Source: Candidatus Babeliales bacterium
GTDB taxonomy: Bacteria; Babelota; Babeliae; Babelales; JANWKD01
Assembly: GCA_963762115.1 (NCBI GenBank)
Contig: CAVXJH010000006.1
Location: 521,662-585,661 of the forward strand
Direction of reading: 5' to 3'
DNA length: 64,000 bases
The translations under genes and the position numbers were made by a program. Below the pieces are notes generated by a model that was not told the origin of the DNA, searched no databases, and saw only the letters and a list, made by a program, of their open reading frames with translations. Position 1 is the first letter of the stretch, and the number at the start of each line of letters is the position of its first letter. This document shows, piece by piece, positions 706 through 63,502 of this stretch.

Positions 706-1122
706 TTATTTCCAAAAAGAGTTATAAAACCAAGGTGCAGCAAAGGCGCCGAAAAGAAAGAATTTGATAAAAGGGTGTGCGTCATACCTTTCACTTATTA
801 TTTTTTTTTGTATAAAGCCTTCTACTTCCTTTCCATCAACTTCAAGATCATGTTTTTCTTTGGTTCTGTAGGTATGATAGAACAAAGGAATTATTGGTTT
901 TAGGTATTGAACAAAAGATTTGGTAAAAGTTACATTAGGATGTTTTTTGCTCTGTAGTTTGGTGATTTGTGAATGAATTATGCGCGTATATTGTGCTATT
1001 TCATATTGATTGCGTAATGGTTTTGTTGTATCCATGCCAAATAACTCTGTATTTGTGCTTAATAGAAAAAGGTTGAAAACAAGAAGTGATTTTGAAAATA
1101 TATTTATTGATAAGACTTTCAT
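706..1122 (-). CDS. Small exported protein with C-terminal hydrophobic tail (tandem paralogue 1)
   Basis: Signal peptide ...TELFG|MD; C-terminus GAFAAPWFYNSFWK shared with 1132..1551. Confidence 0.75.
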   Translation of the reverse strand: MKVLSINIFSKSLLVFNLFLLSTNTELFGMDTTKPLRNQYEIAQYTRIIHSQITKLQSKKHPNVTFTKSFVQYLKPIIPLFYHTYRTKEKHDLEVDGKEVEGFIQKKIISERYDAHPFIKFFLFGAFAAPWFYNSFWK

Positions 1123-1131
1123 GAGTTAATT

Positions 1132-1551
1132 TTATTTCCAAAAGCAATTATAAAGCCAGGGAGCTGCAAAGGCACCAATCAGAAAAGTTTGTGTGAAAGA
1201 ATTTTGCGCAAGATCATATCCTGTGAACACTAATTTTTTTTGTTTATAAGAAGTTGCATGGCCCATATTATTTAACTCAGCTTTTTCTTTTGTTTTATAA
1301 ATATGTTTGAACCAAGGAATATTCATAAATTTCATTTTTTTTGTGTATTGTCTGAAATATAATGTAATGTTTAGTTGAGGGTTTTTTTTGCTGGTGGTAT
1401 TTACTTCAGATAAATAATTTGAAGTTTTATATCCAGTCTTATAACACTGTTCATTTAATGGTTTGGTGCTATTCATACCATGCAGCTTTGAAGCGTGATT
1501 TATAAGAAAAAGAAAGCTTAAGATGAAAAATGATTTTGAAAATATATTCAT
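1132..1551 (-). CDS. Small exported protein with C-terminal hydrophobic tail (tandem paralogue 2)
   Basis: MNIFSKSF...KLHG|MN; C-terminus GAFAAPWLYNCFWK. Confidence 0.75.
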   Translation of the reverse strand: MNIFSKSFFILSFLFLINHASKLHGMNSTKPLNEQCYKTGYKTSNYLSEVNTTSKKNPQLNITLYFRQYTKKMKFMNIPWFKHIYKTKEKAELNNMGHATSYKQKKLVFTGYDLAQNSFTQTFLIGAFAAPWLYNCFWK

Positions 1552-1574
1552 TTTGCGTGTCCCTAAATTAAAAA

Positions 1575-1991
1575 TTATTTTTTTCTAAACCAATTAAAAT
1601 AATAACCTACGCCGATAATTGAACAGGCAAAAGCAGTTCCTAAAAGTGCTTTAGTTTTTTTGCGAAGTCCAAAATTATGATCTTTTCGCTCGTAATATAA
1701 AATGTGTAGGGTTTTTTCATCAAGAGTTGTTTCTCTGACAAAAGATTCTTGTGCCCATGTTAGACCAAAAATGTTCCACCGATTTTTTTCGCATTTTACT
1801 TGGCCATGATTGTGTACTGTAGGCCTTGTTATAATTTTCATTCTAAAATCTGTATATTGAGGATCAAATTCTTGGTGTTTTGGGCTTTTGATTATTTCTT
1901 TATTATTTTTTTGCATGCCAAATAATGATGAACTTGTATTTGCAAGAATAAGAAAGCTGAGTATAAAAAGTGTTTTTGAAACTATATTCAT
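1575..1991 (-). CDS. Small exported protein with C-terminal TM helix (tandem paralogue 3)
   Basis: MNIVSKTLFILSFL...SLFG|MQ; upstream region nearly identical to that of 1132..1551. Confidence 0.75.
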   Translation of the reverse strand: MNIVSKTLFILSFLILANTSSSLFGMQKNNKEIIKSPKHQEFDPQYTDFRMKIITRPTVHNHGQVKCEKNRWNIFGLTWAQESFVRETTLDEKTLHILYYERKDHNFGLRKKTKALLGTAFACSIIGVGYYFNWFRKK

Positions 1992-2164
1992 TTTGTGTGT
2001 CTCTAAATTAAAAAATTATTTTCTATAAGATGAAAGTAGTGAGGTGTTGAATGCTATACCAGCACAACCAATAATAAATTTTCTAATTGAATTTTTAAGC
2101 GCAATAAACTCCATATAATAAATACTATATTTACTATAAAGTATTACGTTTTAATGCATTTTTG

Positions 2165-2632
2165 TCAAAAAGTTATAATTAAAGGAACTCGGGTCACAGG
2201 CTTCAGGGGATCATGAGTATAATAAATAATGGCGCAGTAAAGAGCTAAAAATAATGATGAAGTTATCACGTGGCCTTGCCAGGTTAGTGTTGTTTTGGGT
2301 GCTTCTTTGAAATCAACATTAACTTTTGGTGTGAAGTTTTGACCTTGCATGGTATTAATAACAGTGCATAAATTAAGGGCTGCTTGGGTTTCTTCGTTTG
2401 CACCAATAGCATCTAGAATGTAATGAGAAATTGCTTTATCAGTGATCAAAAAAGGAATGCCAAAAAGATAATCTTTAGTAAGATGGTGTTCAATGGAATG
2501 TTGAGGTGTTTTTTCTTCAAGATAAGATTCTGTTGTAGAGCTTGTGAGCGAGGGAATTGCGTTTAGAGTAAGCTGGTTACCTAGGAAGAATGCAAAAACA
2601 GCTGTCGAGAGAGAAATATTAAAATAATTCAT
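2165..2632 (-). CDS. Exported/membrane hypothetical protein
   Basis: N-terminal signal peptide and C-terminal hydrophobic helix. Confidence 0.6.
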   Translation of the reverse strand: MNYFNISLSTAVFAFFLGNQLTLNAIPSLTSSTTESYLEEKTPQHSIEHHLTKDYLFGIPFLITDKAISHYILDAIGANEETQAALNLCTVINTMQGQNFTPKVNVDFKEAPKTTLTWQGHVITSSLFLALYCAIIYYTHDPLKPVTRVPLIITF

Positions 2633-61587: not shown

Positions 61588-61716
61588 GAAAACTTTCTTC
61601 TTTTTGGTAATTTTTGATAGGTTTTGTAAAATTTTTTTCATTGTAACATGCATATTCCAATATGCAATGGTCTCTTTCATGTCCTATGAGATACTTTCAA
61701 AGAAATTTACCAAAAT

Positions 61717-61775
61717 TCTGGGTTGCCACACCCTGCCTATTGAAGTCAGGGTTTGCAATGACAATTCTGATTTTA
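61717..61775. repeat. Half copy of the RPE-like palindromic element
   Basis: ctgggttgccac...gcaatgacaattctgatt matches 12112..12156. Confidence 0.7.
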
Positions 61776-61830
61776 ATATTTTTTACTTTAGGCTAAGTTT
61801 ATGTTCTTTATTCATCGAGCTCGCGTTATT

Positions 61831-62919
61831 TTAAGCTTGAAAGTGTTTTTTTAAAGCTGTTTTGAGTATAAATGCATTTTGATTGATTGCTGGTGCAAAT
61901 TGTTGTTGAAATGTTAAAGGCAATCGTGTAAACAGTTCACAATAGAATGGCTCTGAAGGGATAATCCCTTCTTGTGTGTTTTGCATTAAAAATTCAGCTA
62001 ATAATAATGTCGATAGTGAAAAATCTTTTGAGATGTTATGAAATGCATAGAGCATTATGGTGTTATTTTTGAACCCAACGGCAAGGTGTACATTATCTGG
62101 TGAAAGGGCTAAGGTAAGAGGTTCGTCATTTGTTGCAAAAGATTGTATTAATGAGCCAGAATCAATATCCCATAATTTTATCATGTTATCGTCGCCAGCT
62201 GAGAAAAGTATATTGTTATTAGAGAGTGTCAGGGCATTAACGCTATCGGTATGACCTTGTATCGTATGCACGCATTTTTTTTGTGCAATATCCCAAACTT
62301 TAATTATTCCATTCATATCGCCAGAAACAAGCATTTCGCCGTTTCCAGAAAAGCAAAGCGTATTAATATTTGCTTCATGTCCTTCAAGAAGATCATATTT
62401 TTCATAATCTTGTGTATTCAATAAGGTTATTGTCATATCATTGCTTGCTGAAGCTATATAATCGTTTTTAGGAGAAAAGAGGACCGCTGTAATATCGTCA
62501 GTATGTTGATTGAATGCAATAAAGCTATCTTGATGGTGATAATCAGGATACATAATAAGTGATTTTTCTGCCCCAAAAGCAATCATATTGTTATCTGAAG
62601 GAGAAAAAACAACAGAATTATGTATGTCGTTATCTTCAAAAGTTTGTAGGATCTCTCCTGTTTCAATATCCCATACTATAATGCTTGGTGCATCACAGCT
62701 TGAAACTAACGTCTTTCCATCGGGTGAAAACGCGATTGAAAGTATGCAGCCTTCGTGATCTTCTAAAGTGGCTATGCATTCGTTGGTTTCAACATCCCAT
62801 AGCTTTATGGTTTGATCCCATGAAGCTGATGCCATTGTTTTTCTATCAGGTGAATAGCAAACAGCAGAAACGCGATCCATATGTTCATGAATGTCGGTTA
62901 TTGTTTTTGGTGTATACAT
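61831..62919 (-). CDS. WD40 beta-propeller protein (probably the 3' part of a BTB/Skp1-WD40 fusion)
   Basis: Repeated H...V..V.FSPD...LAS.S.D.TIKLWD units; no signal peptide of its own. Confidence 0.92.
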   Translation of the reverse strand: MYTPKTITDIHEHMDRVSAVCYSPDRKTMASASWDQTIKLWDVETNECIATLEDHEGCILSIAFSPDGKTLVSSCDAPSIIVWDIETGEILQTFEDNDIHNSVVFSPSDNNMIAFGAEKSLIMYPDYHHQDSFIAFNQHTDDITAVLFSPKNDYIASASNDMTITLLNTQDYEKYDLLEGHEANINTLCFSGNGEMLVSGDMNGIIKVWDIAQKKCVHTIQGHTDSVNALTLSNNNILFSAGDDNMIKLWDIDSGSLIQSFATNDEPLTLALSPDNVHLAVGFKNNTIMLYAFHNISKDFSLSTLLLAEFLMQNTQEGIIPSEPFYCELFTRLPLTFQQQFAPAINQNAFILKTALKKHFQA

Positions 62920-63007
62920 TATTGCTTGGTTATCGGAATATAAAGAAAAAAAGTAATTCCCTTCAACTATCTGAGCAATTTCTAATGCTTGCGTAAGCGA
63001 AGGTATA

Positions 63008-63502
63008 TCAATGATTGAAGATCAGCAATCCTCGTATAAGGCTTTTAATGATGAGAGCTTCTAATATATCACATGATAAATAAGATGCAGCATGAGCAAG
63101 TTGTAAAAGATCTTTTGGTTCATTTGTGTTTACTAAAAGATGTATAAGGCTTTCTTCTTCTTCTGAACTATTATTGGAAACTGTTTTCATAAGATTCAGA
63201 GTCATTTTTAATGCTCCTGATGAAAAATTATGGAAAGAAGGAGCTATGGTTATTGTATGAGCATCTTCATCTGAAGCATCGAGAGAATTTTTTAATGTTT
63301 TTGATAATTCTAATGTTTGTAGAGGCATCTCAAAGGTAAATATTCTTTTGCCGTCACTATTGAGACACTCAATACTGCTATTTTTTTCTTCAATCACCAT
63401 GGCGGTCATTTCTTGATCGAAAGACCCAGCTTCCATGCCATATGATAGAGGTATGAGAGTTACGCTTAAAAACAGGGTTAAAAGAGATTTTTTTGTCATC
63501 AT
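63008..63502 (-). CDS. Secreted Skp1/BTB-POZ-like protein
   Basis: Signal ...LSYG|ME; SDGKRIF, LELSKTLKNSL, LLQLAHAASYLSCDIL. Confidence 0.75.
   Translation of the reverse strand: MMTKKSLLTLFLSVTLIPLSYGMEAGSFDQEMTAMVIEEKNSSIECLNSDGKRIFTFEMPLQTLELSKTLKNSLDASDEDAHTITIAPSFHNFSSGALKMTLNLMKTVSNNSSEEEESLIHLLVNTNEPKDLLQLAHAASYLSCDILEALIIKSLIRGLLIFNH

Follow-up and report, generated by a model that had tools for sequence, protein, structure and literature searches.

A Met-[Asp/Glu/Asn/Gln] tag at the predicted signal peptidase site of effector-like proteins in a member of the Babelota

The stretch of DNA considered here (the window: 64,000 nucleotides, positions 521,662 to 585,661 of contig CAVXJH010000006.1, assembly GCA_963762115.1, from a Candidatus Babeliales bacterium) encodes 19 open reading frames (ORFs, named below by their first coordinate) in which a small residue, followed by Met and then by Glu, Asp, Asn or Gln, stands straight after a hydrophobic N-terminal segment. 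The initial annotation had listed these instances of [G/A/S/C]-M-[E/D/N/Q], and all 19 were verified in the sequence. It had also described the proteins as unrelated, which proved to be overstated: BLAST joins 706 with 1132 and 1575, 16444 with 18362, 22029 with 24161, and 42276 with 46165, reducing the 19 ORFs to 14 families. Pfam recovered the J-domain and AAA+ bodies that had been named (two of each), and the F-box, Skp1 and toxin labels found no Pfam match, even when 13 of the 19 were rescanned at E<=0.5, and no NCBIfam match among the 16 of 19 that were scanned. The two periplasmic chaperones held to be free of the motif are indeed so, both being Rotamase_2 peptidyl-prolyl isomerases (44067 and 45197). 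The Met-[Asp/Glu/Asn/Gln] tag is real and genome-wide, being present on at least a third of the proteins that carry an export signal, and the residues around it support a position for its Met, here numbered +1, at the predicted signal peptidase I (SPase I) cleavage site.

The genome that contains the window (G000; 1.53 Mb, 34% GC, 95% completeness) was analysed with our own gene caller and signal filter, which gave 544 signal-like soluble proteins, and cleavage sites were predicted by our own (-3,-1) scorers, the site scorer rewarding small residues at -1 and small or aliphatic ones at -3 and having no term for Met. In the c-region window, 189 of the 544 proteins show the pattern [GASC]M[EDNQ]; windows of equal size from the bodies of the same proteins show it in 116 of 7806 cases, and non-signal proteins in 22 of 636. 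With the Met-blind scorer, 177 of 521 Sec-signal proteins have Met at +1 (the Met class), compared with counts of 7-21 at each of the offsets +2 to +12 and 12-30 inside the signal itself (-8 to -2). Position +2 of this class is occupied by D/E/N/Q in 144 of 172 cases and otherwise by small residues (9), hydrophobic residues (4), K/R (5) or His (10), a distribution that bears out the earlier recognition of this +1/+2 set as NatB-type N-termini; Glu alone is found there in 100 of 177 Met-class proteins versus 28 of 288 non-Met signals. The constraint ends after these two positions, since the depleted classes return from +3 on (+3 to +7: D/E/N/Q 53-78, small 36-59, hydrophobic 21-35, K/R 17-37). 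The carriers have the features of Sec/SPase I signals: a basic n-region, a hydrophobic core, a small residue at -1 (A 49, G 24, S 20, C 6%) and a small or aliphatic one at -3 (L 36, A 15, S 14, I 13, V 8%). The site lies mostly at residues 17-26. Because the -1, -2 and -3 residues and the signal length are alike in the Met and non-Met classes, both look like ordinary SPase I substrates.

The 230 carriers make up 168 body families, 133 of them singletons, or 156 clusters once DNA similarity between signals is added, and with so many separate clusters a single signal cassette was rejected as the main cause. Among paralog pairs with at least one carrier and 35-55% body identity, the +1 residue is the same in 94% and the +3 residue in 22% of 67 pairs, many of which come from a single array; for the 23 pairs of 20-35% identity, the figure at +1 is 57%. 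A tandem array of about 15 Met-class paralogs lies at C6:349000-361600, where the last two members have the same signal start joined to another c-region and body. Several known signal types were also considered and rejected: a lipoprotein (SPase II) signal, whose lipobox has Cys at +1, the +1 residue here being Met, with Cys at -1 in 6%; a type IV prepilin signal, which is cut before its hydrophobic segment and has Glu at +5, the hydrophobic segment here preceding the site and the true prepilin-type genes being separate; and the PEXEL/TEXEL motif, which is defined by Arg-x-Leu before the cleavage site, there being no Arg among the common residues from -8 to -1. In G000, none of the 50 candidates scored against the phytoplasma SVM model PF12113 matched at E<=1.

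Carriage of the tag follows the predicted destination of the protein. A Pfam scan took in 257 of the 544 signal proteins together with 35 window proteins (the remainder being annotated for ankyrins alone), and ten scanned proteins that are probably not signal proteins were set aside. Among the 257, the Met class includes 16 of 24 ankyrin, WD40, RING, TPR, DOT1 or AAA proteins, but of the 46 envelope proteins and enzymes of bacterial type only 3 belong to it, one of the three being a miscall on OmpH; the Fisher p value of 1.8e-7 for this split is overstated because paralogs were counted. The enrichment of eukaryote-like over envelope proteins for which the initial annotation had proposed to look is thus found, and the sequence data support a division between effector-like and envelope proteins. 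Signal proteins without a Pfam match belong to the Met class in 94 of 177 cases. Ankyrin matches in G000 number 112; 44 ankyrin positions resolve into 43 genes (12 of them hand-curated), of which 26 are Met-class, 15 are signal-bearing without Met and 1 lacks a signal. A search of G000 for BTB domains gave two weak matches; they fall below the cut-off and lie in Met-class genes that are not part of the window.

Prenylation-type C termini provide an independent marker of the host cytosol, and it agrees with the tag. Of 229 Met-class proteins, 14 have CaaX ends, where internal offsets predict 0.4; among non-Met proteins the count is 3 of 348 (p 5e-4). The pattern used here had been widened after the first list was viewed, a stricter version having initially given 9 of 230 versus 3 of 277 (p 0.04), and the 14 include three ankyrin proteins that are paralogs of one another. 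Proteins without a signal call have such ends in 6 of 709 cases, and three of these six resemble the Met class when inspected by eye.

At least 17 Sec-signal proteins of G000 end in CIIS, CLIS, CLVS, CAVQ or CTLQ, often behind basic runs, where about one would be expected. Examples lie at C5:50552-50965, C3:428756-431624, C6:400668-403361 and C7:108966-110717 and, in the window, at 2647, 3389 and 60946; signal-plus-CaaX proteins are also present in two other genomes, G040 and G079.

Table 1. Motif-bearing ORFs, counter-examples and controls in the window, and type II secretion genes of the genome
Feature	Coordinates	Strand	N-terminus and site	Met codon start	Remarks
Motif ORF	706..1122	-	signal peptide, LFG-MD	1035	no family match; paralog of 1132
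Motif ORF	1132..1551	-	signal peptide, LHG-MN	1476	signal common to 706 and 1575
Motif ORF	1575..1991	-	signal peptide, LFG-MQ	1916	
Motif ORF	9082..10392	+	signal peptide, LYS-ME	9148	no family match
Motif ORF	10516..11055	+	signal peptide, AYS-ME	10579	
Motif ORF	14297..14506	-	signal peptide, LNA-MN	14446	69 aa
Motif ORF	16444..17661	-	signal peptide, LIG-ME	17592	J-domain protein
Motif ORF	17839..18060	-	signal peptide, CMA-ME	18003	73 aa
Motif ORF	18362..19801	-	signal peptide, INS-MQ	19735	J-domain protein, paralog of 16444
Motif ORF	22029..23948	+	signal peptide, VVG-ME	22101	no family match
Motif ORF	24161..24610	+	signal peptide, LFS-ME	24233	N-terminal part, split paralog of 22029
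Motif ORF	26543..26983	-	signal peptide, IFS-MQ	26911	
Motif ORF	31117..32172	+	signal peptide, IHA-ME	31183	
Motif ORF	33407..33934	-	signal peptide, LSC-ME	33883	
Motif ORF	38995..42285	-	signal peptide, SQC-ME	42213	1096 aa; no family match
Motif ORF	42276..43886	-	signal peptide, AHA-ME	43826	AAA ATPase
Motif ORF	46165..47364	-	IYC-ME	47232	AAA ATPase, paralog of 42276
Motif ORF	52533..54305	-	signal peptide, LYG-ME	54251	no family match
Motif ORF	63008..63502	-	signal peptide, SYG-ME	63436	just upstream of WD40 ORF 61831-62919
Counter-example	2647..3360	-	signal peptide, Gly at +1		ankyrin repeats, CaaX-like end
Counter-example	3389..4270	-	signal peptide, site without Met		ankyrin repeats, CaaX-like end
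Counter-example	34201..36885	+	signal-like N-terminus, site without Met		ankyrin and AAA
Counter-example	60946..61587	-	signal peptide, site without Met		CaaX end CIIS
Control	44067..45122	+	without motif		periplasmic isomerase (Rotamase_2)
Control	45197..46168	+	without motif		periplasmic isomerase (Rotamase_2)
Type II genes (genome)	C6:432660-437307, C6:205033-212829, C6:84585-86297, C3:453701-454882				GspF, pseudopilins, secretins, ATPases

Some of the window genes appear to be broken or split. The paralog of 22029 lies in two pieces between 24161 and 26065, one of 149 and one of 462 residues (24677-26065), which are 57% and 72% identical to 22029. The Met-Glu ORF 63008 and the signal-less WD40 ORF are separated by a gap of 89 bases and are possibly one split gene (61831-63502). 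A gene that we take from its motifs to be MreB-like (59079-59900) lies in three short ORFs, through frameshifts or an assembly error. An atlas search with residues 1-45 of 52533 gave no usable match, and tblastn of the window AAA protein against plasmids gave generic AAA matches only. Elsewhere in G000, signal-bearing sulfotransferases, methyltransferases and glycosyltransferases (one RXYLT1-like) at L039, L040, L050, L054 and L068 are all without Met and may work in the periplasm or the vacuole lumen. A 736-residue MutS domain III/V protein at L049:12928-15138 has a predicted signal peptide and a site without Met, and in a tandem PvcA-like pair at L068:7099-9416, a cleavable signal with Met-Glu is present on one member only.

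The tag is labile across homologs, and it is not obligatory but varies by family. Our sample of the phylum consists of 151 genomes of 0.8-1.9 Mb, all of one order, and rates are given as called Met-[EDNQ] among signal proteins in 20-440 kb per genome (40-80 kb each for the Met-rich families f9 and f18 and for the alphaproteobacterial genome G189 described below). The range by family is about 0 to 47%: family f1 has the tag in 185 of 507 and 2 of 17 signal proteins, f18 in 7 of 15, f9 in 7 of 22, f2 in 2 of 15, f3 in 3 of 25, f6 in 11 of 138 and f8 in 1 of 16. In G040, an f6 genome, Ser leads at +1 (18 of 70 versus a 9% background), the pattern [x].[AGC]S[EDQ] is found 17 times versus 1.5 expected, and seven signal-plus-CaaX proteins, when read by hand, have Ser (5) or Ala (2) as their first residue; on two of those with Ser the scorer disagrees. 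Ser and Ala represent the other common type of eukaryotic start.

Outside the phylum, we sampled 80 loci around ATP/ADP translocases and some later regions, a set that contains no free-living AT-rich two-membrane bacterium. Met-[EDNQ] was called in 0 of 61 signal proteins of Chlamydiae, 0 of 13 of Endozoicomonas and 0 of 37 at other translocase loci (Holosporales 6, Rickettsiales 2, other gammaproteobacteria 8, uncultured 15, other 6); Escherichia coli gave 0 of 12, a weak control drawn from 200 kb with a hydrophobicity filter (21 signal proteins, again none with the motif, when relaxed). The initial annotation had allowed that the motif might be equally common in other AT-rich bacteria, and among those sampled it does not characterise AT-rich or intracellular bacteria at large. 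We also rejected AT-richness as the cause because the motif is much scarcer in the envelope proteins of G000 and in G040, whose GC content is likewise 34%. One alphaproteobacterial endosymbiont order with an ATP/ADP translocase, picked because one of its loci displayed the motif, has 10 of 76 versus 1.4 expected; at its ankyrin loci there are 21 signal proteins, none with Met by the scorer. Alphaproteobacterial loci combining a signal with Met-Glu are L188:1747-2978 and L307-L310 (G189).

The gene content of G000 suggests both a lifestyle and a route of export. TLC-family translocase genes are present, and the bacterium likely parasitises protists. GspF and GspG score above the cut-off, and there are further pseudopilins, two secretins of more than 900 residues each and two PulE-type ATPases, but no marker of a type III, IV or VI secretion system was found in this 95% complete genome. 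Such a gene content fits what has been published for Dependentiae (Babelota), in which two gspD copies are present in all genomes (PMC4776705) and type II is the only secretion system (PMC4378268). GspG matches occur in 61 of 61 phylum genomes, 26 of them above the cut-off, and the alphaproteobacterial order has a secretin (G151) with weak pseudopilin-like matches at 34 of 41, none over the cut-off. With a Sec signal and an encoded apparatus, the carriers are candidate type II substrates. Two tandem SPase I genes are present in G000 (C3:457976-459744, L021), and many relatives have at least two, as judged from a genome search in which some candidates only were scored.

Proteins predicted to be cut before Met are likely to be effectors bound for the host cytosol. 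We suspect, at a probability of roughly 55%, that their Met-[Glu/Gln/Asp/Asn] end copies a normal eukaryotic start and thereby lets them escape the host N-degron ligases. According to this reading, translation begins, as the sequence shows, at the upstream ATG or GTG, where a Shine-Dalgarno sequence is found and the inner ATG has none; Sec export would be followed by an SPase I cut before Met, as predicted from the -3/-1 rule; the protein would leave the bacterium through a type II apparatus, which alone of four types was found, or in vesicles, which have been seen in Chromulinavorax (PMC6561590); and arrival in the cytosol is suggested by the CaaX boxes and the WD40, RING, ankyrin and J domains. 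A signal-peptidase cut normally bares an arbitrary residue. Large residues are often bared in this way, with consequences for a protein that enters the cytosol (PMC8037982). Arg/N-degrons comprise basic, bulky hydrophobic and D/N/Q/E/C ends; small ends can be GASTC/N-degrons when unacetylated; and UBR ligases target Met followed by a hydrophobic or basic residue (PMC11735805). Methionine aminopeptidase (MetAP) trims Met only before small residues (PMC8037982). Met-[D/E/N/Q] would be the class left after these degrons and Met trimming, and the +2 classes depleted in G000 are those listed in these sources as degrons or MetAP substrates. Met-D/E/N/Q is also the NatB set, for which PMC11735805 describes no physical link to ubiquitin ligases as yet shown. 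Host NatB might acetylate such an end as well, but protection is probably independent of acetylation. Selection would come from host N-terminal quality control, acting through a selectable stability bias rather than an absolute gate.

Several points weigh against this reading. According to PMC11735805, NatB acts co-translationally at the ribosome, so that acetylation is doubtful after delivery and is not assumed here, and fly and mouse data suggest that some NatB substrates, when unacetylated, may be recognised by UBR ligases. The ten His residues at +2 among 172 Met-class proteins would form a NatC-type rather than NatB-type end (PMC11735805). Part of the +2 bias could be explained by the preferences of E. 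coli LepB, which disfavours aromatic residues at P2', and of Sec, which favours mature regions with an acidic beginning (PMC10269814). Because Babela grows inside a vacuole (PMC4378268), the route of the effectors to the cytosol is unexplained. The cleavage sites are all predicted and none has been measured. In G000 itself, 15 of 41 signal-bearing ankyrin proteins lack Met in the hand-curated set, many of them with a predicted destabilising +1 residue (such as His, Lys, Tyr, Gln, Glu or Asn), and three signal-plus-CaaX proteins lack it as well. Homologs of the window AAA protein 42276 carry Met-Glu in one of six fetched and lack it in the other five, paralogs in a close relative (L374) read Met-Ser, Met-Lys and Met-Asp, and no carrier was called in the small samples of families f11 (0/54), f5 (0/23), f4 (0/7), f12 (0/7) and f16 (0/2). 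The controls outside the phylum are also small.

An alternative that we regard as tentative, and rather unlikely, is that the free Met-Glu end is an export address read by a periplasmic receptor or by the type II machine, as with the processed PEXEL end in Plasmodium. The separation of effector-like from envelope proteins would be expected of such an address, the two-residue constraint fits a binding pocket equally well, and the type II genes of G000, with no type III, IV or VI marker found beside them, together with the secretin and weak pseudopilin-like matches of the alphaproteobacterial order, offer a possible reader. The second-step translocator that the initial annotation proposed is nevertheless weakened: the type II system is phylum-wide, with GspG in every genome searched, and yet the tag ranges from about 0 to 47% by family, many effector-like proteins and lineages being untagged. 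CaaX and ankyrin proteins without it occur in G000, homologs differ in carriage, phytoplasmas have the same end and no outer membrane, and an exchange of Met for Ser under a conserved type II system fits poorly.

The remaining explanations, which place the cause in the peptidase, in the origin of the genes or in translation, are minor rivals to host mimicry. One of the two tandem SPase I paralogs might cut fastest before Met-Glu, with heavily secreted proteins tuned to it; the adjacent gene pair, its counterparts in many relatives and the effect of P2' on LepB cleavage (PMC10269814) lend this some appeal, but periplasmic housekeeping proteins are mostly untagged (3/46 with the tag), the -1 to -3 residues and signal lengths do not differ between classes, and f11 genomes also have two SPase I genes and no called carrier, so we consider it improbable. 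We give similarly little credence to the view that the Met is an old start codon, left where signals were grafted before captured genes or spread as a cassette. Some signals are common to unrelated bodies (706/1132/1575; the tandem genes at C6:349-361 kb), and grafting could be the origin of the tag, but there are 156 separate clusters with many different codons at -1, residue 2 of cytosolic genes in G000 is Lys in 19% and Glu in 5% versus Glu in 56% of tags, NatB-type starts make up 21% of the human proteome (PMC11735805) versus 84% here, and the paralog pairs of 35-55% identity, many of them from one family, keep +1 and not +3. Least probable of all, to the point of being hardly credible, is a second start at the inner ATG that would yield a signal-less cytoplasmic isoform. 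This ATG does lie in frame at a domain boundary, but a Shine-Dalgarno core precedes it in 1 of 177 cases, compared with 78 of 177 first ATGs and 16 of 600 random internal ATGs; there is no GTG/TTG excess at +1; and in three ankyrin genes whose first ATG is at the site, a GTG with a strong Shine-Dalgarno sequence stands ahead of the signal peptide. The suggestion of the initial annotation that the Met might be a second start is contradicted by these counts.

Host mimicry of this kind has partial counterparts in known systems. In phytoplasmas, which have no cell wall and a single membrane, export does not require a second step. In Plasmodium and Toxoplasma, cleavage of PEXEL and TEXEL proteins, respectively, exposes a two-residue end with Glu, Gln or Asp second on host-bound proteins; the G000 tag differs in having neither Arg-x-Leu nor a dedicated aspartic protease, in following the ordinary SPase I rule, in its fixed Met at +1 and in not being obligatory. 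Host-prenylated bacterial effectors of the Legionella AnkB type have CaaX boxes behind basic residues, as in G000, but are delivered by a type IV system with no cleaved Sec signal, whereas in G000 both protein ends look eukaryotic. There is a close likeness to the phytoplasma SVM family (PF12113; SAP54/PHYL1), in which a Sec signal on host-cytosol effectors likewise leaves Met as the predicted first mature residue: the last position of the consensus, residue 33, is Met, and cleavage falls between residues 32 and 33 (bioRxiv 10.1101/411140), and five SAP54/PHYL1 sequences continue Met-Asp or Met-Asn (PMC8026896 supplement). In the portions of these two accounts used here, the Met is neither discussed nor assigned a function. 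SVM is one homologous signal family and the G000 signals are diverse, and because PF12113 finds no match in G000 the likeness is one of convergence rather than of a shared family. NatB substrates likewise begin Met-Asp/Glu/Asn/Gln and keep their Met (PMC11735805, PMC8037982), but the G000 end would be made post-translationally by a bacterial peptidase, away from host ribosomes. Babela massiliensis and Chromulinavorax destructans also have very large signal-peptide effector sets (ankyrin, ubiquitin-system), type II secretion only and two gspD copies (PMC4378268, PMC6561590, PMC4776705); these accounts report signal peptides, no +1/+2 rule was found in them, and "prenyl" was absent from the two main texts in which the term was sought. 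Large signal-peptide effector sets are described, and no +1/+2 rule was found, in the main texts of PMC6561590, PMC4378268, PMC4776705, PMC12172432, PMC8163844, PMC8026896 and PMC3482391 (Dependentiae supplements and subscription journals lying outside the search), and within this literature the tag is a form of terminal host mimicry for which we found no earlier report.

A broader proposal, which we judge to be evenly balanced, is that Sec-exporting intracellular bacteria of at least three phyla (Babelota, the alphaproteobacterial order and phytoplasmas) have converged on a false initiator Met, giving a Met-[D/E/N/Q] or Ser-[D/E/Q] start, such that the first two mature residues would serve as a host-cytosol address label, read by the host N-degron system or by a bacterial N-terminus receptor, on some 230 cytosolic effectors in G000. 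In Dependentiae-like parasites, which have no type III, IV or VI system for the choice and delivery of hundreds of signal-peptide proteins, a two-residue mark parts predicted host-cytosol from envelope proteins. Present also on about half of the domain-less signal proteins scanned, it yields a list of effectors for a phylum of which little has been brought into culture. If the mark is an export tag, type II secretion would have a short linear recognition signal, of which to our knowledge none has been established. If instead the host-side reading is true, host N-degron surveillance has shaped bacterial secretomes.

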